In this document: positions 6 through 26,751 of the stretch, one piece after another
Position numbering within the stretch: the first letter of the stretch is position 1
Layout of the letters: every line of letters starts with the position of its first letter
DNA from: Candidatus Azotimanducaceae bacterium
GTDB taxonomy: Bacteria > Patescibacteriota > Minisyncoccia > Phycocordibacterales > UBA918
DNA: 36,820 nt
NCBI GenBank assembly: GCA_047616585.1
Contig: JBLHGD010000002.1
Coordinates: 1-36,820, forward strand
Reading direction: 5' to 3'
Notes under the pieces: generated by a model
What the model was told of the DNA's origin: nothing
Seen by the model: the letters and a program-made list of their open reading frames with translations, nothing else
Database searches by the model: none
Program-made: the position numbers and the translations under genes

Positions 6-113
6 ATATCATCAATGATATAGAGACTGTTGCGTACATTTTGATATCATTGATGATATAAAACCCACTACCCACTGTTACATTCTCGGATTTCTTTATA
101 TCATTGATGATAT
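6..113. repeat. Cluster of three 16-bp inverted-repeat boxes ATATCAT-NN-ATGATAT
   Basis: Exact boxes at 6-21 (centre CA), 44-59 (centre TG) and 98-113 (centre TG). The 7-nt arms are identical to those of the eight boxes at 14181-14952. The spacers resemble those of the 14762-14857 cluster. Confidence 0.9.
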
Positions 114-247: not shown

Positions 248-1516
248 ATGAACAAATCTAACAAAGAGCTATCAACTGATCCATACAAAGGTGTGCGGGA
301 TTTTTATCCGGAGGATATGGCAGTGCAGCAGTATATGTTTGATGTGTGGAGTAAGACTGCTGAGAGTTTTGGGTTTGAACGGTATGATGCTTCGATTCTT
401 GAGCCGTCAGCCCTGTATAGAAGCAAAGGAGCGGTAAATGAAGAGATGGTCAATGAGCAGACGTATACCTTTACTGACAGAGGTGATCGTGAGGTGACAC
501 TTCGCCCTGAAATGACACCGTCTGTTGCGCGCATGATCGCAGGCAAGCATAGAGAGCTCTCCTTCCCTGTTCGGTGGTATTCAATTCCAAATCTGTTTCG
601 ATACGAACGTATGCAGCGAGGGCGCTTGCGCGAGCACTGGCAATTGAATTGCGATATTTTTGGTGCCGAACACATGTCTGCTGATGTTGAATTGATAGCA
701 CTTGCACATCAGATATTTATAAACTTTGGGGCTGATTCTGACATGTTCGAAGTGAGGATCAACAGCAGAAAGGCGCTTGACGCGCACTTTGAAACATCAG
801 GAATCACAGACTCGGAGACAATTGCAGCTGTGACCAATATCATTGATAAAAAAGCCAAGATGTCAGAAGAAGAGTTTGCGACGAAACTAACTGAGGCTGC
901 AGGTGGTGAGTTCGCACTTCCCGATTCGACCCCAAAAGAAGTATCCGATGTACTAGATGCACTTTCAGAACTTGGCATTACTAACGCAGTACACGACCCT
1001 TCAATTGTGCGTGGATTTGACTACTACACAGGAACTGTCTTTGAAATCTTTGACAAGAATCCTGAGAACAATCGCTCAATGATGGGCGGAGGGCGCTACG
1101 ACAACCTTACAGAGATGTTCCTGCCTGCCGGACAGGCGGGTGGTGGTGAGCCGATTACAGGAGTTGGGTTTGGATTTGGTGACGTGACACTCCGTAACTT
1201 CCTTGAAAGCAATGATCTACTGACTTCCAACATTACTTCCCCGTCACTTATGGTCATTCCTACAGATACCGAGTTTAACCTCGAAGGACAAAAAATCGCA
1301 AAAGCATTCCGTGATGCTGGCATGAGTGTTTCTGTGGACATATCAAATCGAAAAGTTGGCAAGAAAATATCTGCTGCCAGTGACGCATTAGCTGAATACG
1401 TTCTGGTACTCGGCGAAGATGAGATCAAATCACAAAACTACACACTAAAAAATCTTATTGAAGAAACTGAAGAATCCGGGACGCTAGACACACTTATAGC
1501 TCAACTCACCAACTAA
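248..1516 (+). CDS. hisS: Histidine--tRNA ligase
   Basis: 422-aa ORF with class II HisRS motifs (GVRDFYPED, LRPEMTPSVAR, FRYERMQRGRLREHWQ, GGGRYD) and a C-terminal anticodon-binding-like region. Confidence 0.95.
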   Translation: MNKSNKELSTDPYKGVRDFYPEDMAVQQYMFDVWSKTAESFGFERYDASILEPSALYRSKGAVNEEMVNEQTYTFTDRGDREVTLRPEMTPSVARMIAGKHRELSFPVRWYSIPNLFRYERMQRGRLREHWQLNCDIFGAEHMSADVELIALAHQIFINFGADSDMFEVRINSRKALDAHFETSGITDSETIAAVTNIIDKKAKMSEEEFATKLTEAAGGEFALPDSTPKEVSDVLDALSELGITNAVHDPSIVRGFDYYTGTVFEIFDKNPENNRSMMGGGRYDNLTEMFLPAGQAGGGEPITGVGFGFGDVTLRNFLESNDLLTSNITSPSLMVIPTDTEFNLEGQKIAKAFRDAGMSVSVDISNRKVGKKISAASDALAEYVLVLGEDEIKSQNYTLKNLIEETEESGTLDTLIAQLTN

Positions 1517-4500: not shown

Positions 4501-4539
4501 ATACAAAAGACCGGCAACACAGTTGCCGGTCTTTTGTAT
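4501..4539. terminator. Bidirectional terminator hairpin between convergent genes
   Basis: ATACAAAAGACCGGCAAC / GTTGCCGGTCTTTTGTAT stem with an A-run on one side and a T-run on the other. It lies between the DsbA-like stop and the helicase stop. Confidence 0.8.
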
Positions 4540-4541
4540 TA

Positions 4542-7500
4542 TTAATCCCCCACCAACATAGTGACTAAATCACAATAATCGGACACATTAGGATCACAGG
4601 GCTCCCCGAGAAACTTCCCAGAAATAATTTCCTTCACTACAGCAATGATCTCAGTGTGCAACGCAGCAATTTCATCATCAGTAATGGTATACGCTTCTTC
4701 ATGAATCACTCCTTTACTGTCCGGCTCAAGAAACGCAAGAACTCCTTCTCTACAGGCATATCGTTCATCACCGTACAACTCTAACAATAATGCATAAAAT
4801 GTAAGCTGGCGCTTATATCCTCCATCAGAGGTTTTGGTATTCCCTTCGATGACATTTCGGGTCTTCGGCTTCCCTGTTTTGTAATCAATAACTCGCACAA
4901 CGTTTCCGTCACTATCGAAATCTAATCTGTCGAGTTTACCAGTAAGTATCAACTCGGGAAATTCAGGAATGCCTGTATCCATAGTTACTCGCACACTAAA
5001 CTCTTCAGAAGTTTTCTTTGGATACGAAGGAGCCGTATGCTGGATATAAGCATGCAATGCCTCTAGGCCCCGTTCATGTCTGCGAACATACTCTTCTTTA
5101 GAGATTGGCAAACGAGAGAGCTCTTGCTCTAAAAGTTTTTGTATCTCTGTATCAGTAGAAAGTTTCTGTTCTCTTGTGTGGAATGCCGTTACTTTCTCCA
5201 TCACGTTATGCATCGCTGTGCCAAACTGCATATGCAACGGCTGTACCTCAGGCACGCGCAACACATTGCGATAGAAGTAATCCCACGGACTTTTCAAATA
5301 ATTATTCAATGCAGTAGCTGAAAGTCCACGCTCAGACAATACCTTCTTGAGAAATTCAATTTCAATTTTTGGTGCAGGGTGTGACTGAGCCAAACTAGAT
5401 ACAGGATTATACGCATCTTCTTCTGCAATAGTAGTGCACGTAACACAATAGGCATCATCGATGTCCTCAAAGAGTCGAGACGGGGCTAGCTCTTTCCCAA
5501 GCGCATTAGTTGCCGAAGACGACATGCACAGACTCTTTTTTGCGCGAGTCATGGCAACATATAAAAGCCTACGCTCATCATCAAGCTCATCAAGTGTAGA
5601 TACGTCGATATGTTTCGTCAGTGGAATATCAAAGTATGATCGCTTCTTTGATCCGCCATACTGTGAATCAGTCACATGAGGGATCAAGACAGTGTCGAAC
5701 TCCAGGCCTTTAGACTTGTGAGCTGTCATAACCTGCACCGCCTGCGTGCTTGTTGCTATAAATGGTGCGTTAATCGGAAGTTTGTATTCGGCACTTTTCT
5801 TGAATGCTGCACTGACATCTGTAAGAGTTGCCAAATTATCGCGAGTAACCATAGATTCAATTTCGTCATAGACTCGTCGCAGCACGCGCGTACCCTCAAA
5901 AGGATCAGTGGCTATCACATGGTCCAGAAATCCACTTTCACGTAATACAAATTCTAAAACGCGATGTGGCGCGTCGGTCGCTTCCTTACTGCGAGCAGCT
6001 TCCAGAACTCTCGTCACACGTACTACAGCATCACTGTCGTGCACACCAATTTCAGAAAGCTTCTGCTCATCTGAGATAATCTCAAGGAGTGTCGTACCAT
6101 ATCTTTGTGCGCTGACGATCTTCACCAAATCATTCTTAGAGACACCCCAATATGAGCCGTGTAACACAGTGAACAACGAGCGTTCGTGCCTAGTTTCCAC
6201 AATCGCACTCATGATACTCAGAACACTGTGCGTAATTGGATGCGACAACACGTCTCCATCAGCGCTCGCATGCACCTGTACCCCATGTTTGCGCAGCAAT
6301 AATGCAATCTGCTCTACTTCCCTATTTGTACGCACAATAACCGCTATTTCTTGCGGCTGCGTTCCTGTCTCAATTGCCGTTTGCACACTCGTGCGTATCC
6401 ATGCATCTTCAACAACTTCATGCGAAAAATGTCGCTGCTCTACTACTGCAGAAAATGTATGCGCGGACGTAAGCGGAACACGGAGTGCTGCAGCAGGCCC
6501 TTCATCTATATGAATGAGACTATGCGAGGCATCAAGTACCATCTGTCCCGACCGATAGCTTTCAGTGAGTGCTATCGTCGTCGTGTTCGGGAACTTCTCT
6601 TCAAAATAAAGAAAGTTCTCCAGTGATGCACCTTGGAATCTATAGATTGCCTGCTTCTCATCTCCTACAACAAAAATATTAGGACTTTCATGATAGGAAG
6701 CCAGTAATTCAAGAATGCGATTTTGCGATCCATTAACGTCCTGGTGTTCATCAGCCAAAAGATACTGGTAGGTTTCCTGAAGATCACGAAGCATATCTTC
6801 GTTATCTTGCAGGGCCTTTACCGTCTCCACAATCATGTCTTCAAAGTCATATAAATGCTGCTCTTTCAGAAGAGTTTCGTACTGACGGTAGATATATAGA
6901 AGTTCACGATTCTTCTCAATACCCTTCTCTTTTTTGGTGTACTCGCCTCGAACCTTACCCTTATGGGCTCCTTTTACATGAATTTTTTCAATTCCAAGTA
7001 GCTCAGTATCTTGTTGCGCAATCACGTCTGCAAACAAGTCTGGGGTGAGATACTCCTGCTTGAGAGTACCTAACATGCGAAGTATATGATTGATGTAGTA
7101 CGATGGGTCACCAGCTGGACGCAAAATTTTTATCTCTGTATTTTCAAGGATTGTCTCAATACACTCGATCTTCTCAAGCTCAGTCGCAGGCCTACCACCA
7201 ATTACTTTCGTGTACGCGTCAGGATAACTTCGAATCAGAAACTCTGAAAAACCATGGAAGGTGAAAATATTGACCCGATATGCATCCGCACCAATATACC
7301 GTCGTAATCGCTCACGCATTGCCTTGGCCCCACTTTCGGTAAACGTAAGCGCGAGGATATTCGAAGCGGCAATATCTGTCCGCAAAAGTATATTCGCTAT
7401 GCGCAACGTTAGAATTTGTGTCTTTCCTGTACCGGGACCCGCTACGACCATGACAGGTCCTTCAATTGTATCCACAGCCTGTTTTTGAGCTGCATTAAGT

Positions 7501-13613: not shown

Positions 13614-14024
13614 ATGCCACGAAGATATCCTTCGCGGTCGGATAATGAAAGGAGACTTAGATTGCATCTACTCACTATTACCCGTGACTCAGACAGGAAG
13701 CACGATGTCACGCCAGAGAGTGTCCCGTCCGATTCGGTTGGGTGTGAAGACTATCGGTTGCTTCATAAAGGATCAGGACGATTTATCACAGTGACGACAA
13801 CTGGAGGAACGAGGATTCAATTGGTGAAGTGGTTCCTGAACCCTGAGCAATCCCAGCAGGACCAGATAGCGTTGCTTCTTGAGGTCGCAGATACATATAA
13901 AGAAAAATTCACATTACAGGAGGCTGGCACGCACCCCATTGATGCGATTTTCTTTCGGGTTAACCCCGGAGACGATCCTGATATCAAACTACTAATGGTT
14001 AACCGCCCTACAGAGAGCGAGTAG
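13614..14024 (+). CDS. Hypothetical protein (orphan)
   Basis: 136-codon open frame. An in-frame TTG at 13671 is preceded by AAAGGAG (13657-13663) at 7-nt spacing, so a 117-aa product is plausible. I recognise no family. Confidence 0.45.
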   Translation: MPRRYPSRSDNERRLRLHLLTITRDSDRKHDVTPESVPSDSVGCEDYRLLHKGSGRFITVTTTGGTRIQLVKWFLNPEQSQQDQIALLLEVADTYKEKFTLQEAGTHPIDAIFFRVNPGDDPDIKLLMVNRPTESE

Positions 14025-14050
14025 GGCGACGAACCACCCGGGTAAACCAG

Positions 14051-14100
14051 TCCGACCAGCGCAGTTCTTAAGTACAAATCTATACGCAGCGCTGGTCGGA
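14051..14100 (+). other. 12-bp hairpin downstream of the orphan ORF
   Basis: TCCGACCAGCGC (14051-14062) pairs with GCGCTGGTCGGA (14089-14100) across a 26-nt loop. T-runs follow at 14117-14127. Confidence 0.6.
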
Positions 14101-14180
14101 TTACGGCACAGCGCTGTTTTTCGTTTTTAATACAAAAATAGTTAGTACGATTAATTCCATTGCAATGACACCAAGTTTAT

Positions 14181-14271
14181 ATATCATCAATGATATATAA
14201 CCACTACACACTTTTATATATCATTGATGATATCAAAAGTGCCACATTTTTCTATATATCATTGATGATAT
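14181..14271. repeat. Three ATATCAT-NN-ATGATAT boxes upstream of the TrpR-like gene
   Basis: Exact boxes at 14181-14196 (CA), 14218-14233 (TG) and 14256-14271 (TG). Spacing is 37-38 bp. Confidence 0.95.
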
Positions 14272-14274
14272 AAT
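14266..14274 (+). promoter_or_regulatory. Extended -10 promoter element overlapping box 3
   Basis: TGATATAAT (TG-n-TATAAT) at 14266-14274. The right arm of the box forms part of the -10 element, which lies 28 nt upstream of the ATG at 14302. Confidence 0.5.
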
Positions 14275-14301
14275 GACTTTCTTATAGATAACTATTTGTG
14301 T

Positions 14302-14754
14302 ATGAGTAAAAGTGTGAAGAAATTGAATCCACATGAGAAGAAGATCGTACTGGAATCTTTGTATGCCTGCGCCGAAAACATGAGCGGCAAACACTCCGCT
14401 GTTTCTTTTGTTGATGAATTACTTACCGAGAGCGAAAAAATCACCATCGGAAGACGTATTCTCATTGCACAGATGATACTTGCAGGAGAAACACAGGCTA
14501 AAATCCGTTACAGGTTAGGAGTAAGCCCAAATACATTTACCCGAACTCGTACATGGCTCTCGGGACAAGTCCCCAACTTCGATCAAGCACTCAAAGATTT
14601 TGAACAAACAACAACAGAACGCAAACCCAAACAAAAGAAAATCTCAAAAGAATATATCGACCCAACAAGCTTCACCGGCCTCCGCAAAAAATATCCCGCC
14701 CATTTCCTCCTCTTCAATCTAGCCGAAGAATTACTCACCCGCATTAGCAAATAA
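14302..14754 (+). CDS. TrpR/YerC/YecD-like helix-turn-helix DNA-binding protein
   Basis: About 150 aa. LLTESEKITIGRRILIAQMILAGETQAKIRYRLGVSPNTFTRTRTWL matches the Trp-repressor-like YerC/YecD pattern (LLTp.E...l..R..ia..Ll.g.sy..I....gvS.aTItR). The ORF is also open from a TTG at 14296. Confidence 0.7.
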   Translation: MSKSVKKLNPHEKKIVLESLYACAENMSGKHSAVSFVDELLTESEKITIGRRILIAQMILAGETQAKIRYRLGVSPNTFTRTRTWLSGQVPNFDQALKDFEQTTTERKPKQKKISKEYIDPTSFTGLRKKYPAHFLLFNLAEELLTRISK

Positions 14755-14761
14755 CATCCCC

Positions 14762-14952
14762 ATATCATCAATGATATCGAAACTATTCCCCATTTTTATA
14801 TCATTGATGATATGTAAACAAATTTAGTACTGTTACTTTCTATATCATTAATGATATAGAAATGAGTTTGGTAGTTCGACGTTATATATCATTGATGATA
14901 TATACCCCTATGTACGCTTACTGAATGGGGATTTTGATATCATTGATGATAT
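14762..14952. repeat. Five ATATCAT-NN-ATGATAT boxes downstream of the TrpR-like gene
   Basis: Boxes at 14762-14777 (CA), 14798-14813 (TG), 14842-14857 (TA, a perfect palindrome), 14886-14901 (TG) and 14937-14952 (TG). Spacing is 36-51 bp. Confidence 0.95.
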
Positions 14953-15012
14953 ATAACGTTGTGTATGTTGATTGAACATTAAACGGTGTTTTCGTGTTAG
15001 AAAAAGGCGGTT

Positions 15013-15050: not shown

Positions 15051-15797
15051 CTAAAACAAACTGGGTTTGCCGAGTATCAATTCTTTGCTTACAGGACCGA
15101 AATCACGTGAGTCTCGACTGAACTCTCTATTGTCACCCAACAGATAATATTCGTTATCATCAAGTACAACGTCAGTATCTCCAACAGTGTCCCCTACTAC
15201 ATACGTGTCATCGCGTAATGATTCATTAACATACACCCCACCATCGGCAATACGCACACGGTCTCCAGAAACTGCAACAATTCGTTTAATAGCAAACTTG
15301 GATTCGTCGTCTGGAAATCTAAATATCACAATATCACTCACTGCAAATGACCGATCCAATTTGTTGATAATTATATACGCGCCCTGCTCATACGTAGGTG
15401 ACATTGATAAACCAGAGACTATGAACGGCTCAGCTATAAATAGCCTAAACGGCACTACAGTCACTAGCGTTAAAATTAGGGTTGCAAAAAAATACACTAC
15501 ACCAAGTTTGATGCTTTGTTTTAGTGTCACCGGTGAATACAGTCTATGAATCCAAAAAACGAATAATGCTCCAGCGAGAATGAGCCCCACTATGTCAGAT
15601 ACGTCCGGCACAAGTTTACTCAAACTCATCGTAAGAAGTACTGAAACAATACCGACACTAACGGAATATAGCAGGAGTGTCTTGAACGCATTACCAAACG
15701 ATATAGCTCGTGCTAATAGCTTTGCTGCGATCACTTTAAACAAGTATATGGGAGCAACAAGGATTATTACAGAGACAAAAATAAATACGTATATCAT
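15051..15797 (-). CDS. lepB: Signal peptidase I with an extended N-terminal membrane region
   Basis: GLSMSPTY (catalytic Ser), KRIVAVSGDRV (catalytic Lys box) and GDNREFSRDSRDFGPV. The ORF is open to 15872, but that extension spans the rpoC terminator, so the start at MIYVFIF (15797) is preferred. Confidence 0.85.
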   Translation of the reverse strand: MIYVFIFVSVIILVAPIYLFKVIAAKLLARAISFGNAFKTLLLYSVSVGIVSVLLTMSLSKLVPDVSDIVGLILAGALFVFWIHRLYSPVTLKQSIKLGVVYFFATLILTLVTVVPFRLFIAEPFIVSGLSMSPTYEQGAYIIINKLDRSFAVSDIVIFRFPDDESKFAIKRIVAVSGDRVRIADGGVYVNESLRDDTYVVGDTVGDTDVVLDDNEYYLLGDNREFSRDSRDFGPVSKELILGKPSLF

Positions 15798-15823
15798 ACG
15801 GATTAATTGTACACTAACGCAAG

Positions 15824-15853
15824 AAAAGGCCGGGGCTTTAGTCCCGGCCTTTT
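15824..15853 (-). terminator. Rho-independent terminator closing the rpoBC transcription unit
   Basis: The minus strand reads AAAAGGCCGGG-ACTAAAG-CCCCGGCCTTTT followed by CTTGCG. The GC-rich stem is flanked by an A-run and a T-run. Confidence 0.75.
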
Positions 15854-16076
15854 CTTTGTTCTGTTTTACCACCTCAACCCATCTTTCGATGATCTAGAAA
15901 TTTCAGAATTGGATGCAGTGCGAGGTGAGAAAGTCTGGGAGACTTTCGCAAGACCTTGCCTAATATTTCTTGAATACTTGGAAAGAAATATGGACAAGGT
16001 GTACAGCGTCTGTAAGACGGACGTACTAGTGCATTGAGTGAGCAAACTGCAGTTCCAACGAAGCAGATGAAGTGAA

Positions 16077-24781: not shown

Positions 24782-25471
24782 CTAATTACCTCTCGTATCT
24801 TTTTCTTTCTGCCACGCTTCAATCAGTTTGTGGTTTCCCTCAAGCAAAACCTTTGGAACAGTGTGTTTTTGCTTTTTCCACTCTAGAACCTCCGGACGAG
24901 TATACAACTCCCCTGATGCAGCACGATCATCTTCAAGAGACTCTGAAGTACCTAACACACCAGGAACCTGGCGAGAGACCGAATCTATGATGGTAAGCGC
25001 CGGCAACTCGCCTCCGGTTAGCACATAGTCTCCTACTGACACTTCTTCAGCTTTGAGAATCTTCTTCACTCGATGATCAATACCTTCATACCTCCCACTG
25101 ATCAAAACCACATGATCATATTGCTTTGCGAGTTTCTTTGCCATAGTCTGGTCAAACACTTTTCCACGTGGCGACATAATAAGCGTCTTTATTTTCTTTG
25201 TGTCGCGTTTCCGTCCAACTGCTTTCTCGTATGCTCGTAAAATCGGCTCTGCAGCCATCACCATCCCTGGCCCTCCTCCATACGGCCTATCATCCACCTT
25301 CTTGTGTTTGTTTTTAGAAAAATCCCGCGGATCATAATACGAAACCGCAATCTTCTTCCCACGAACCTTCGCCCCAACTCCTTTATCAGTCTTCTGCGCA
25401 CGCCCCAAAACCGACGCGTCCGTGTACGCTCTACAAACCTCTGGAAATAATGTGATTACGTGGAAGTGCAT
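24782..25471 (-). CDS. trmD: tRNA (guanine37-N1)-methyltransferase
   Basis: MHFHVITLFPE, DDRPYGGGPGMVM, LISGRYEGIDHRV, GDYVLTGGELPALTIIDSVSR. The start at 25471 lies 1 nt after the upstream NUDIX stop. Confidence 0.93.
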   Translation of the reverse strand: MHFHVITLFPEVCRAYTDASVLGRAQKTDKGVGAKVRGKKIAVSYYDPRDFSKNKHKKVDDRPYGGGPGMVMAAEPILRAYEKAVGRKRDTKKIKTLIMSPRGKVFDQTMAKKLAKQYDHVVLISGRYEGIDHRVKKILKAEEVSVGDYVLTGGELPALTIIDSVSRQVPGVLGTSESLEDDRAASGELYTRPEVLEWKKQKHTVPKVLLEGNHKLIEAWQKEKDTRGN

Positions 25472-25472
25472 A

Positions 25473-25886
25473 CTAAAAGAATTTAACATATGTAGCAATA
25501 CGCTCAGCATCACCCGACATCAATGGTGAAGGTAACGTATCAAGTGTAAACCAACCGATCTCATCATACACTGGTTCAGCAATATGTACGGCTTGCCGAT
25601 CAATTTGAGCAGCAAAAAATATACCTATCCAATGACCATTATCATCAACGAACTCTCGTGTTTCAATCTGCTCCACACAAAAAGGTTCAGTTCCAAATTC
25701 TTCGCGCACTTCCCGGACCAAGGCCACTTCTAAGTTTTCATTTAATTCTACTGCCCCTCCTCCAAACTCCCACTTGCCATAATTGTCACGTGCAGCCATA
25801 CTGCGTTTGCCCATAAGGAAATTACCCTCGCCATCGTGACAAACAGCTGATACGAAAATACCGATAGTATCAATTCCTTTTTTCAT
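25473..25886 (-). CDS. NUDIX hydrolase
   Basis: 137 aa with the Nudix box GGGAVELNENLEVALVREVREEFG. Confidence 0.85.
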   Translation of the reverse strand: MKKGIDTIGIFVSAVCHDGEGNFLMGKRSMAARDNYGKWEFGGGAVELNENLEVALVREVREEFGTEPFCVEQIETREFVDDNGHWIGIFFAAQIDRQAVHIAEPVYDEIGWFTLDTLPSPLMSGDAERIATYVKFF

Positions 25887-26338
25887 AAACGATCTTTGTA
25901 TTCTTCTAATATATACCTCTTAAACAATGGAATTTCCGGTAATACGCTTGAATGTAGTGGAGCTGGTAAATTATCAAACGTAAACCAATTCATCTCATCA
26001 CACATATCAGGTTCAGTTATTGAAATCTGATCCCGGCTAACATGAACGAGAAAGAGAAATCCTATCCAGTGTTTGAGATACTGTTCAACATCAACAATAA
26101 GTTCGTGATGTGTGACGTACGAATACGAGATCGGCGCGACCACGCCCAACTCTTCTTTTAGCTCTCTCAACATTCCCTCTTCAATTGTCTCACCATGCTT
26201 CAAACCTCCTCCAGGAATCTCCCAACAACCATGTTCATCGCGACTATTATTGCTTCGTTTGCAAAAGAGGAAATGACCTTCTCCATCATGACATAAAAAC
26301 ACAACCGCATTACCAACATAATCAACTCCCTTTTTCAT
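25883..26338 (-). CDS. NUDIX hydrolase (paralog)
   Basis: Nudix box GGGLKHGETIEEGMLRELKEELG. The start at MKKGVDYVG (26338) parallels the MKKGIDTIG start of the neighbouring gene. It overlaps the next gene by ATGA. The longer ORF to 26443 would include a terminator. Confidence 0.85.
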   Translation of the reverse strand: MKKGVDYVGNAVVFLCHDGEGHFLFCKRSNNSRDEHGCWEIPGGGLKHGETIEEGMLRELKEELGVVAPISYSYVTHHELIVDVEQYLKHWIGFLFLVHVSRDQISITEPDMCDEMNWFTFDNLPAPLHSSVLPEIPLFKRYILEEYKDRL

Positions 26339-26369
26339 TAGGCAATCGTAGCACAAGAGTGATCCCAGA

Positions 26370-26408
26370 CAAAAGAAAACCGCCGTCCATGGCTTTTTGG
26401 TTTCCATG
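26370..26408 (-). terminator. Rho-independent terminator
   Basis: The minus strand reads ACCGCCTTGCATGG ... CCATGGACGGCGGT followed by TTTTCTTTTG. Confidence 0.65.
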
Positions 26409-26462
26409 CAAGGCGGTGTATACATTTTGCGCCCAGAGTTCAAGTCATCAGGTCCTCAAAGA

Positions 26463-26684
26463 TTATTTTGGCGCGCATTCTTCACGCTCTATCTTACTTT
26501 TGTAGTGTAGCGCAAAATAGTTTTTTGAAGAGTCTCCATTCTTTCCATCTGGATTGAGAATCTCAATATCTGGTTTGCCACACCTTGTGCAAGTACCTTT
26601 CCCGACCAGCGTTGGCAAGGAATCGATAGATTTTTCTGCGCTCACTGAGCTCCCTCCAATTGCGGGCACAAAAGCATGCACCAT
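26463..26684 (-). CDS. Hypothetical small protein with a CxxC motif
   Basis: 73-aa ORF (GTCTRCGKPD) with its own downstream terminator. I recognise no family. Confidence 0.4.
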   Translation of the reverse strand: MVHAFVPAIGGSSVSAEKSIDSLPTLVGKGTCTRCGKPDIEILNPDGKNGDSSKNYFALHYKSKIEREECAPK

Positions 26685-26751
26685 AAATCAGACATACTAT
26701 TTTCGTGCTGAATGTCAATTCAGCTCTCAGAATTTGTGGAGGGTGTGAGAA

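Follow-up and report, generated by a model that had tools for sequence, protein, structure and literature searches.

The closest described relatives of the regulator considered here are the tryptophan repressor TrpR and HisR, both of which bind palindromes and are often autoregulated (PMC9413887, Ashniev et al. 2022). HisR, the YerC protein of B. subtilis, is a histidine-responsive TrpR-family repressor of histidine biosynthesis and transport genes (PMC9413887). Its operator is a 20-bp palindrome, cacTTTAn6TAAAgtg, with a TGTAnTA type in proteobacteria; hisR is autoregulated in about half of the genomes, and in vitro validation was obtained for Ruminococcus gnavus (PMC9413887). That study covered seven named phyla, Firmicutes foremost, and the candidate phyla radiation was not among them (PMC9413887). 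Our own literature search on TrpR-type regulators in candidate-phyla-radiation bacteria returned nothing relevant. Here we analyse contig JBLHGD010000002.1, positions 1 to 36,820 (the window, by which we mean the whole 36,820-nt or 36.8-kb stretch), in which a gene for a TrpR-family helix-turn-helix (HTH) protein is bracketed by copies of a 16-bp inverted-repeat box, ATATCAT-NN-ATGATAT. We consider it likely, with a probability of roughly two in three (about 0.68), that these boxes are operators of the protein encoded between them and that the arrangement is autoregulatory. A preliminary description of this DNA had called YerC/YecD-type proteins functionally undescribed, a statement that the identification of B. 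subtilis YerC as HisR has made outdated (PMC9413887).

An exact search found 11 copies of the 16-mer ATATCATNNATGATAT in the window, where none is expected; 100 dinucleotide-preserving shuffles of the window gave 0 matches. Relaxing the search to three mismatches added merely 4 window matches, and whole-window shuffles give 2.48 by chance. The 11 boxes fall into three groups, three upstream of the TrpR-like gene (cluster B), five downstream of it (cluster C) and three upstream of hisS (cluster A). The preliminary description had counted the eight around the gene, all at their correct positions, and had missed cluster A (starts at 6, 44 and 98). Its account of the boxes themselves was accurate: both 7-nt arms are identical in every copy, the spacers are 20-35 nt long (start-to-start spacing of 37 and 38 in cluster B and of 36, 44, 44 and 51 in cluster C), and the central dinucleotides read CA, TG, TG upstream and CA, TG, TA, TG, TG downstream. 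Cluster C begins 7 nt past the stop codon and lies between the TrpR-like gene and lepB, which runs convergently on the minus strand (15051-15872). Features of an array of clustered regularly interspaced short palindromic repeats are lacking in the window, since the repeat has 16 bp (vs at least 23 nt), there are no cas genes, and the box positions are matched in a related locus, L143. An Rfam search at gathering thresholds gave no match, its E-value mode returned only sub-threshold microRNA-hairpin look-alikes, and a tRNA search found none.

Relatives of this locus came from two-box scans, one covering a single genome for each species and the other metagenomes, and then from the fetched contigs of homologs. 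The genome scan yielded two genomes of this lineage, L001 (54% protein identity) and L005 (61%), with boxes flanking the homolog in both, its remaining matches being Fur-linked pairs in SAR11 and unrelated repeats. The metagenome scan returned 112 loci, only one of which (L072, 46% identity) added a lineage. The comparison set comprises 12 further loci, making 13 loci and 189 kb with the window, at protein identities of 33-83%. In all 12 further loci at least one box lies upstream and at least one downstream of the homolog. The core shared across relatives is TAT[C/G]AT-NN-AT[G/C]ATA. Conservation extends over the inner 14-mer, TATCAT-YR-ATGATA, but not to the outer A/T pair, which is variable and is C/G in Kaiserbacteria. 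Exact 14-mer cores number 47 in the 189 kb, and 41 of these lie within 300 bp of the gene ends, where a uniform spread would place 2.0; the six found away from the gene flanks are the hisS cluster and three others. Because the cores adjoin the gene in this way, the box element is tied to the TrpR-like gene and is not scattered like repetitive extragenic palindromic (REP) sequences or miniature inverted-repeat transposable elements (MITEs), the pattern that the preliminary description had set against its own reading.

Comparison with L143, an ortholog with 83% protein identity, bears on selection at the boxes. Its three upstream boxes stand at positions matching those of the window, the first with one mismatch and one with the centre CA in place of TG; near-identity to the window is seen in box 3, the -10 element and the leader, and the spacers have diverged and include a 6-nt indel. 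Downstream it has two intact boxes and one decayed, vs five in the window. The earlier argument that the boxes reflect selection on a binding site and not recent duplication is borne out by this retention of boxes between diverged spacers and by the persistence of the same core around homologs down to 33-35% identity. Box sequence is conserved, and box number and spacing are not. The number ranges from 1+1 (L127, L131, L132, L133) to 3+5 in the window, and the spacing across loci is 33-63 bp or more. We saw no helical phasing in the box spacing or in the ~470-530 bp between upstream and downstream clusters. The polarity proposed earlier, with CA in the first box of a cluster and TG in later ones, holds in the window but fails in relatives: the upstream centres are TG and TG in L001, followed by one-mismatch boxes with TA and CA, and TG and TA in L005, and L124 and L129 have TA in all flanking boxes. 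An extra open reading frame (ORF) between the boxes in L129 is not a paralogue. In L141, the long spacer from the upstream boxes to the gene (1560-1870) holds two copies of ...cctgtggtgagcccgccgaatccatc... and of tatttcgacgagcgagg, an unexplained repeat.

The genes around the homolog differ between lineages. It lies within rpsP-khpA-[gene]-trmD in Kaiserbacteria and between dnaG and rpoC in the clade of the window, and other neighbourhoods are SET/infC, GH15/PGI, AdoMetDC, FemAB/Mur ligase and L10/RuvC. The window has its own rpsP (28016-28585), khpA (27482-27865) and trmD (24782-25513) on the minus strand, 10 kb off, and the TrpR-like gene is not among them. Since the Kaiserbacteria gene sits inside this cluster and the window cluster (24782-28585) lacks it, comparison with L124 and L127 indicates that the gene and its boxes would have moved together as a module.

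The boxes nearest the start codon overlap predicted promoters. The preliminary description had proposed that box 3 of cluster B supplies an extended -10 element for the gene, and the element is read there as TGATATAAT. For the comparison we divided the lineages by their recognition helix into group 1 (VSPNTF-type helix, 9 lineages, 40 boxes) and group 2 (VGxDT-type helix). Counting the window, 7 of the 9 group-1 lineages have a TGnTAnnnT that consists of the proximal box's right arm and the three bases after it, 8-31 nt before the ATG. The lineages that share this construction with the window are L143, L001, L005, L124, L129 and L131, and the -10 hexamers in these lineages are TATAAT, TATTAT, TATGAT, TATAGT or TATCAT. 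Its retention agrees with the autoregulation through the promoter-proximal box that had been suggested. The distance from the end of the -10 to the ATG is exactly 6 nt in L005, L124 and L129, pointing to leaderless mRNAs; in the window and in L143 it is 27 nt, and the leader would be ~20 nt long. Position is also regular on the other side of the gene, where, among the 12 loci with exact cores, 10 have their first downstream box either 4-14 nt past the stop codon or overlapping that codon. A composite site in L139 (see below) likewise lies a few nucleotides past the stop codon.

The protein matches Pfam Trp_repressor (PF01371) over residues 19-99 with 37.3 bits, against a cut-off of 27, and this domain is present in all but three among the 104 homologs listed. 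It scores below the NCBIfam cut-offs both for YerC/YecD (TIGR02531, 19.6 bits vs 42.2) and for the TrpR equivalog (TIGR01321, 26.6 bits vs 67.25). Relatives behave similarly with TIGR02531, P0030 and P0078 reaching 21.2 and 21.6 bits and P0046 giving no match. An AlphaFold2 model built on a 22-sequence alignment (predicted local distance difference test, pLDDT, 83) has eight helices, and the predicted helices 10-26, 32-40, 43-60, 65-72, 76-89 and 93-107 correspond to TrpR helices A-F. This TrpR core (residues ~10-107) is followed in the model by a Lys-rich low-confidence linker and then by two extra C-terminal helices. The C-terminal extension, ~50 aa long, is conserved, and its motif L-R/K-K-K-Y-P-x-H-F-L-L-F-N-L (KKYPxHFLLFNL) holds the most invariant residues outside the core in the family alignment. 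The best PDB matches in Foldseek were the HisR-type structures 3FRW, 3KOR and 3G1C and E. coli TrpR (1TRO); the top ~40 were all TrpR or HisR structures, with probabilities of 0.91-1.00 and weak E-values, from 8e-3. Alignment to E. coli TrpR by hhalign had a probability of 95%, and BLASTP gave no alignment to it, the similarity being visible only by profile comparison. A profile search, counting matches with E below 1e-10, returned at least 843 clusters (50% identity), and most of the best 150 matched over the full length. The named members of this subfamily are Kaiserbacteria, Parcubacteria and 'Patescibacteria group', which places the window in a candidate-phyla-radiation bacterium; searches of plasmids and phages, plus viral contigs, found no relatives of the protein.

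Set beside HisR, the protein shares PF01371, its best PDB sequence matches (3KOR, 3G1C, 3FRW), the LTESE...GRR..IA helix signature and a palindromic operator. It differs in length, at ~150 aa vs under 100-110 for HisR, owing to the conserved two-helix C-terminal extension; in its operator, TATCAT-YR-ATGATA vs the HisR 20-mer; in having boxes downstream of the gene as well; and in having no histidine biosynthesis or transport genes nearby, hisS being the only histidine link, in this lineage only. With E. coli TrpR (trp, aroH and trpR operators) it has in common the six-helix fold (Foldseek probability 1.00 to 1TRO and 1TRR), the T-x-T-R motif of the recognition helix and autoregulation by a promoter-overlapping operator, which is predicted here; half-site and spacing are different, and the C-terminal extension is additional. 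Because it scores under both NCBIfam cut-offs and has a different operator, the protein belongs to a subfamily separate from YerC/YecD and TrpR, seen so far in candidate-phyla-radiation bacteria.

The layout of the locus has parallels outside this family. In phage lambda, cI lies between the OR and OL operator triplets, whose spacers vary in length; the promoter of cI itself is overlapped by one of the two, and long-range looping tightens autoregulation. The present locus likewise has a repressor gene between two clusters of similar pseudo-palindromic boxes, of which one overlaps its predicted promoter; the protein family differs, and the downstream boxes here overlap no recognisable promoter. 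In ParR/parC systems, too, arrays of short repeats surround the promoter from which a small DNA-binding protein regulates its own gene, but ParR is a ribbon-helix-helix protein and not of the TrpR fold, and the present system has no partner NTPase that we could find, an array of variable size and an exclusively chromosomal location.

Box sequence and recognition helix vary together. The helix VSPNTF(T/S)(R/K)T(R/K)KWL pairs with TATCAT-YR-ATGATA, and the centres of the 40 group-1 boxes are TG (18), TA (12) and CA (10), all pyrimidine-purine steps. In group 2, the helix VGxDT(V/I)x(R/K)VxxWL pairs with TATGAT-AT-ATCATA (L132, L133, L141), which is the group-1 frame with a symmetric C:G to G:C change. 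Two Kaiserbacteria proteins carry T80S, and their boxes have a C/G pair, not A/T, at position +/-8. In L139, also of group 2, the site CTATGATAT-AATGAA-ATATCATAG occurs on both sides of the gene (4536-4559 and 5015-5038), and relative to L133 its two good half-sites are separated by another 8 bp, which would suit a tandem pair of bound dimers. Tandemly bound TrpR dimers are offset by 8 bp, and PDB 1TRR is titled as a tandem-binding complex. In the hhalign alignment N77, T78, T80 and R81 stand opposite TrpR A80, T81, T83 and R84, and those TrpR residues contact DNA (PMC9413887); it is with Ala80 and Thr83 among them that the residues changed between the groups align. This co-variation is, in our judgement, the strongest computational evidence that the encoded protein would read the box.

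Many boxes are also the apex of far longer perfect palindromes of 28-50 bp, in which the lower stems are unrelated in sequence and still complementary. Examples are ctctcttctcc-box-ggagaagagag and cccgtgcttg-box-caagcacggg in L129, aaaaaagcaatttac-box-gtaaattgctttttt in L124 and ccccgctactttatg-box-cataaagtagcgggg in L131. The extensions beyond the core measure 5-18 bp, and an extension of at least 5 bp is found at about half of the boxes vs <0.2% of random positions. Five box-tipped hairpins folded as RNA had energies of -28 to -43 kcal/mol with z-scores of -8.6 to -12.4, and three of the five had a U-rich run after the hairpin within the folded stretch. Flanked by a run of A at one end and of T at the other, the hairpins of L005 and L129 resemble bidirectional terminators. 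Promoter-proximal boxes usually have little or no extension. The boxes of the window extend by 0-5 bp beyond the 16-mer and fold weakly (-2.8 to -10.4 kcal/mol, z-scores -1.0 to -3.4). We read the outer boxes as operators that would double as insulating terminators in many lineages, and the window as a case in which the hairpins may have decayed while the box copy number rose.

The mechanism that we consider most likely is negative autoregulation through gene-bracketing operators, the outer ones often doubling as terminators. A dimer would read the half-sites TATCAT and ATGATA across the flexible pyrimidine-purine centre, perhaps in response to a small-molecule corepressor. Occupation of the promoter-proximal box would cover the gene's own extended -10 and so repress transcription, a negative autoregulation familiar from TrpR and from many HisR genes; promoter occlusion of this kind fits the TGnTAnnnT formed at the proximal box. 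Together with the remaining upstream boxes, those past the stop codon would complete a self-contained module of operators, gene and operators that is kept together on relocation. Many relatives have these outer boxes at the apex of long perfect hairpins with a U-run after them, and there the boxes would also act as intrinsic and partly bidirectional terminators that insulate the gene. The window, on this view, has lost most of the hairpin extensions to decay and expanded its boxes to 3+5. There the protein, once bound, may form a roadblock or bring the two clusters together by looping out the ~500 bp that separate them. This genome also has the three-box array upstream of hisS, a probable copy.

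Several points weigh against this account. We infer binding of the protein to the box from sequence, and the promoters are consensus matches only. The co-variation of box and helix amounts to only two independent evolutionary events and could reflect shared ancestry. An identical 16-mer pair adjoins a Fur-family gene in SAR11 bacteria, so another protein family could read such a palindrome. The spacing of 33-63 bp without helical phasing weakens cooperative side-by-side binding, and the box census covers 189 kb of loci, which bears on the size of the regulon. Finally, 5-18 bp of palindromy with unrelated sequences is needless for a dimer that binds duplex DNA and hints at a hairpin or cruciform function, a hint that the operator model covers only for the terminator-like copies. 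Extension at promoter-overlapping boxes (L072, L132) falls outside the terminator reading, and may represent mutational growth of the palindrome or a hairpin or cruciform role.

The palindrome may be embedded in the apex of hairpins insulating the gene on each side, as an operator-in-terminator module, with the protein controlling termination, roadblock or read-through in addition to initiation, perhaps by binding the extruded hairpin or cruciform, so that the module itself is the functional product. We hold this to be unlikely; if it were true, the module would be a self-contained insulator or landmark spread through Parcubacteria, one that, as far as the sampled DNA goes, controls hardly anything but the gene that it contains. 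It is decidedly unlikely, in our estimate, that the boxes are mainly structural hairpins (terminators, REP-like elements or cruciforms acting in RNA or single-stranded DNA), with duplex recognition secondary or absent. The many copies at the apex of 28-50 bp perfect palindromes with differing yet complementary stems would suit that explanation, as would the very stable RNA folds, several with U-runs after them, and the terminator-like look of the first copy just past the stop codon. Yet a terminator has no need of an apex whose 14 nt do not change between 83% and about 43% protein identity. Copies near the promoter, besides, usually show little or no extension and overlap a -10, and most copies in the window barely fold. 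There are, moreover, few copies outside the gene flanks, unlike REPs, and no RAYT tyrosine transposase; the 41 of 47 cores that speak against REPs and bacterial interspersed mosaic elements flank a gene for an HTH protein without a catalytic domain.

The operator reading would also have to give way if a regulator encoded elsewhere, for example one of the Fur family, bound the boxes and the TrpR-like gene were simply its most conserved target. The SAR11 pair, which four genomes share at one intergenic site by Fur-family and znuBC-like genes, is what favours this, together with the small number of co-variation events; the box also resembles parts of the classical Fur box. We regard the idea as quite improbable, because neither a Fur-family gene nor a metal-uptake gene is present among the window ORFs scanned or among the genes called in the fetched loci of relatives, because the boxes accompany one gene through seven neighbourhoods and on both sides, and because the change in the box coincides with residues equivalent to DNA-contacting positions of TrpR. 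A centromere-like, iteron-like or other chromosomal landmark, with the protein as adaptor, is more improbable still and in our view very much so. Multi-copy arrays (3+5, plus the copied three-box array) around a probably autoregulated HTH gene recall such systems, beyond the gene flanks there are six exact cores only in 189 kb, and it is odd for a regulator to regulate mainly itself, a habit with parallels in ParR/parC and in the Tus and RTP genes beside their Ter sites. But four lineages have one box per side, box number changes between close relatives, the cumulative GC skew marks neither an origin nor a terminus, and the family is absent from the plasmids and phages searched. The preliminary description had itself observed that no ParA/ParM, Rep or transposase gene is nearby, and we likewise found no ParA, ParM, Rep, transposase or Fur among the window ORFs scanned, nor ParA, ParM or Rep among the called genes of the relatives' loci. 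Its analogy to centromeres, iterons and large arrays is accordingly not supported, as array size is not conserved, phasing is lacking, and the scanned ORFs include no partner NTPase.

Similar palindromes occur in unrelated settings. The SAR11 pair consists of two copies of ATATCAT-NN-ATGATAT that begin 31 bp from each other; four Pelagibacteraceae genomes, single-cell or metagenome-assembled, carry it in one and the same intergenic position (L002 6210-6256, L003 3675-3721, L007 137-183, L009 753-799). In L009 it adjoins a Fur-family (zur-like) gene, which alone was Pfam-scanned, and two ORFs that resemble znuB and znuC by sequence; the pair is probably a Zur/Fur-type box. Most of the 112 metagenome loci have the centre AT (ATATCATATATGATAT) and lie on low-coding, repeat-rich contigs that look eukaryotic or giant-viral and have no TrpR-like gene, and we set them aside as unrelated. 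Freshwater contigs (L054, L082, L091, L019, L017 and others) carry dense ATATCATATATGATAT arrays of up to 17 copies in 5.7 kb, the copies often overlapping at 12-bp intervals and lying both between and inside repeated ORFs that begin MYDII...; these arrays are a different, unexplained repeat family. L066, which L041 overlaps, encodes large proteins and one beginning MNILMNQEYEHLNWPLYPG... that looks OTU-protease-like by eye. Long gene-free stretches with the same 14 specified bases and centres CG, TC, GA and TG occur in L041, L059, L066 and L083, of which L059 and L083 are ORF-poor.

Cluster A raises the question of a histidine link (Table 1). It ends 135 nt before the hisS ATG, and its last box forms TGATATTAT at 108-116. 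The cluster is complete and lies between a DCC1-like gene and hisS, as a longer copy of the contig (L011) has no further upstream box. Its spacers resemble those of cluster C, with ACTGTTAC common to both and a shared CCC-box-.GA.ACT context. Because its boxes and spacers resemble the first three of cluster C, cluster A is probably a recent, lineage-specific local copy of them. In the two nearest lineages (L135/L136 and L137/L138), whose HisS proteins are 74% and 68% identical and one of which is syntenic with the window, there are no boxes upstream of hisS, and the link to histidine through hisS is accordingly not a conserved one. A his operon or his transporter is likewise lacking among the window ORFs scanned, and the repeated motif here differs from the HisR-type operator, for which no dedicated motif search was made. 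Directly downstream of hisS, at 1694-2164, the window has a small ORF and an ORF for a ParE/YafQ-like toxin, a probable toxin-antitoxin pair; in the closest relative, L135, an antitoxin-like pair lies upstream of hisS instead.

Table 1. Box clusters, the predicted promoter element and the genes that they adjoin, in window coordinates
Feature	Coordinates	Strand	Remarks
Cluster A	6..113	.	Boxes 6-21 (CA), 44-59 (TG), 98-113 (TG); exact; upstream of hisS
hisS (histidyl-tRNA synthetase)	248..1516	+	Pfam tRNA-synt_His; possible extra box target, in this genome only
Upstream cluster B	14181..14271	.	Boxes 14181-14196 (CA), 14218-14233 (TG), 14256-14271 (TG); exact; proposed operators
Extended -10 TGATATAAT	14266..14274	+	Box 3 right arm and next 3 nt; ends 27 nt before ATG 14302
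TrpR-family HTH gene, 150 aa	14302..14754	+	PF01371, structure model, family alignment
Downstream cluster C	14762..14952	.	Boxes 14762 (CA), 14798 (TG), 14842 (TA), 14886 (TG), 14937 (TG); exact

In the window, rpoD and dnaG are divergent from the TrpR-like gene, and lepB, rpoC and rpoB are convergent. Pfam scans of the tested ORFs identified rpoD, dnaG, lepB, khpA, rpsP, SMC and others; rpoC and rpoB were assigned by similarity to genes of relatives and not by Pfam scan. Cumulative GC skew is monotonic across the window with no turning point at the locus, which rules out a replication origin or terminus. The 713-bp spacer between dnaG and the TrpR-like gene is probably non-coding, because the one ORF there (13614-14024, 136 aa) has neither a Pfam match nor a counterpart in L143. 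A strong hairpin, CCGACCAGCGC...GCGCTGGTCGG, followed by a small second hairpin and a T-run, lies at 14049-14125, which leaves ~55 nt before cluster B begins. In L143 the 3' half of the hairpin and the T-run have been conserved far better than the DNA around them. The palindrome CAGCGCTG occurs twice, so that alternative pairings are possible, and Rfam gives no match. The hairpin could be a gene-insulating terminator, a leader or a small RNA.

The transcription factors of candidate-phyla-radiation bacteria are essentially unstudied, and for a family with 843 or more clusters at 50% identity the locus offers a well-defined pairing of regulator and operator that can be tested. Part of this pairing is a predicted switch of specificity by a single base, linked to specific residues of the recognition helix, and the operators of further helix classes (GxST, GPNT) would be predictable likewise. 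For genomes that are very compact, operators on both sides of a gene, often fused to terminator hairpins, would be an uncommon way of arranging autoregulation, and they would extend the TrpR/HisR family beyond amino-acid biosynthesis operons.

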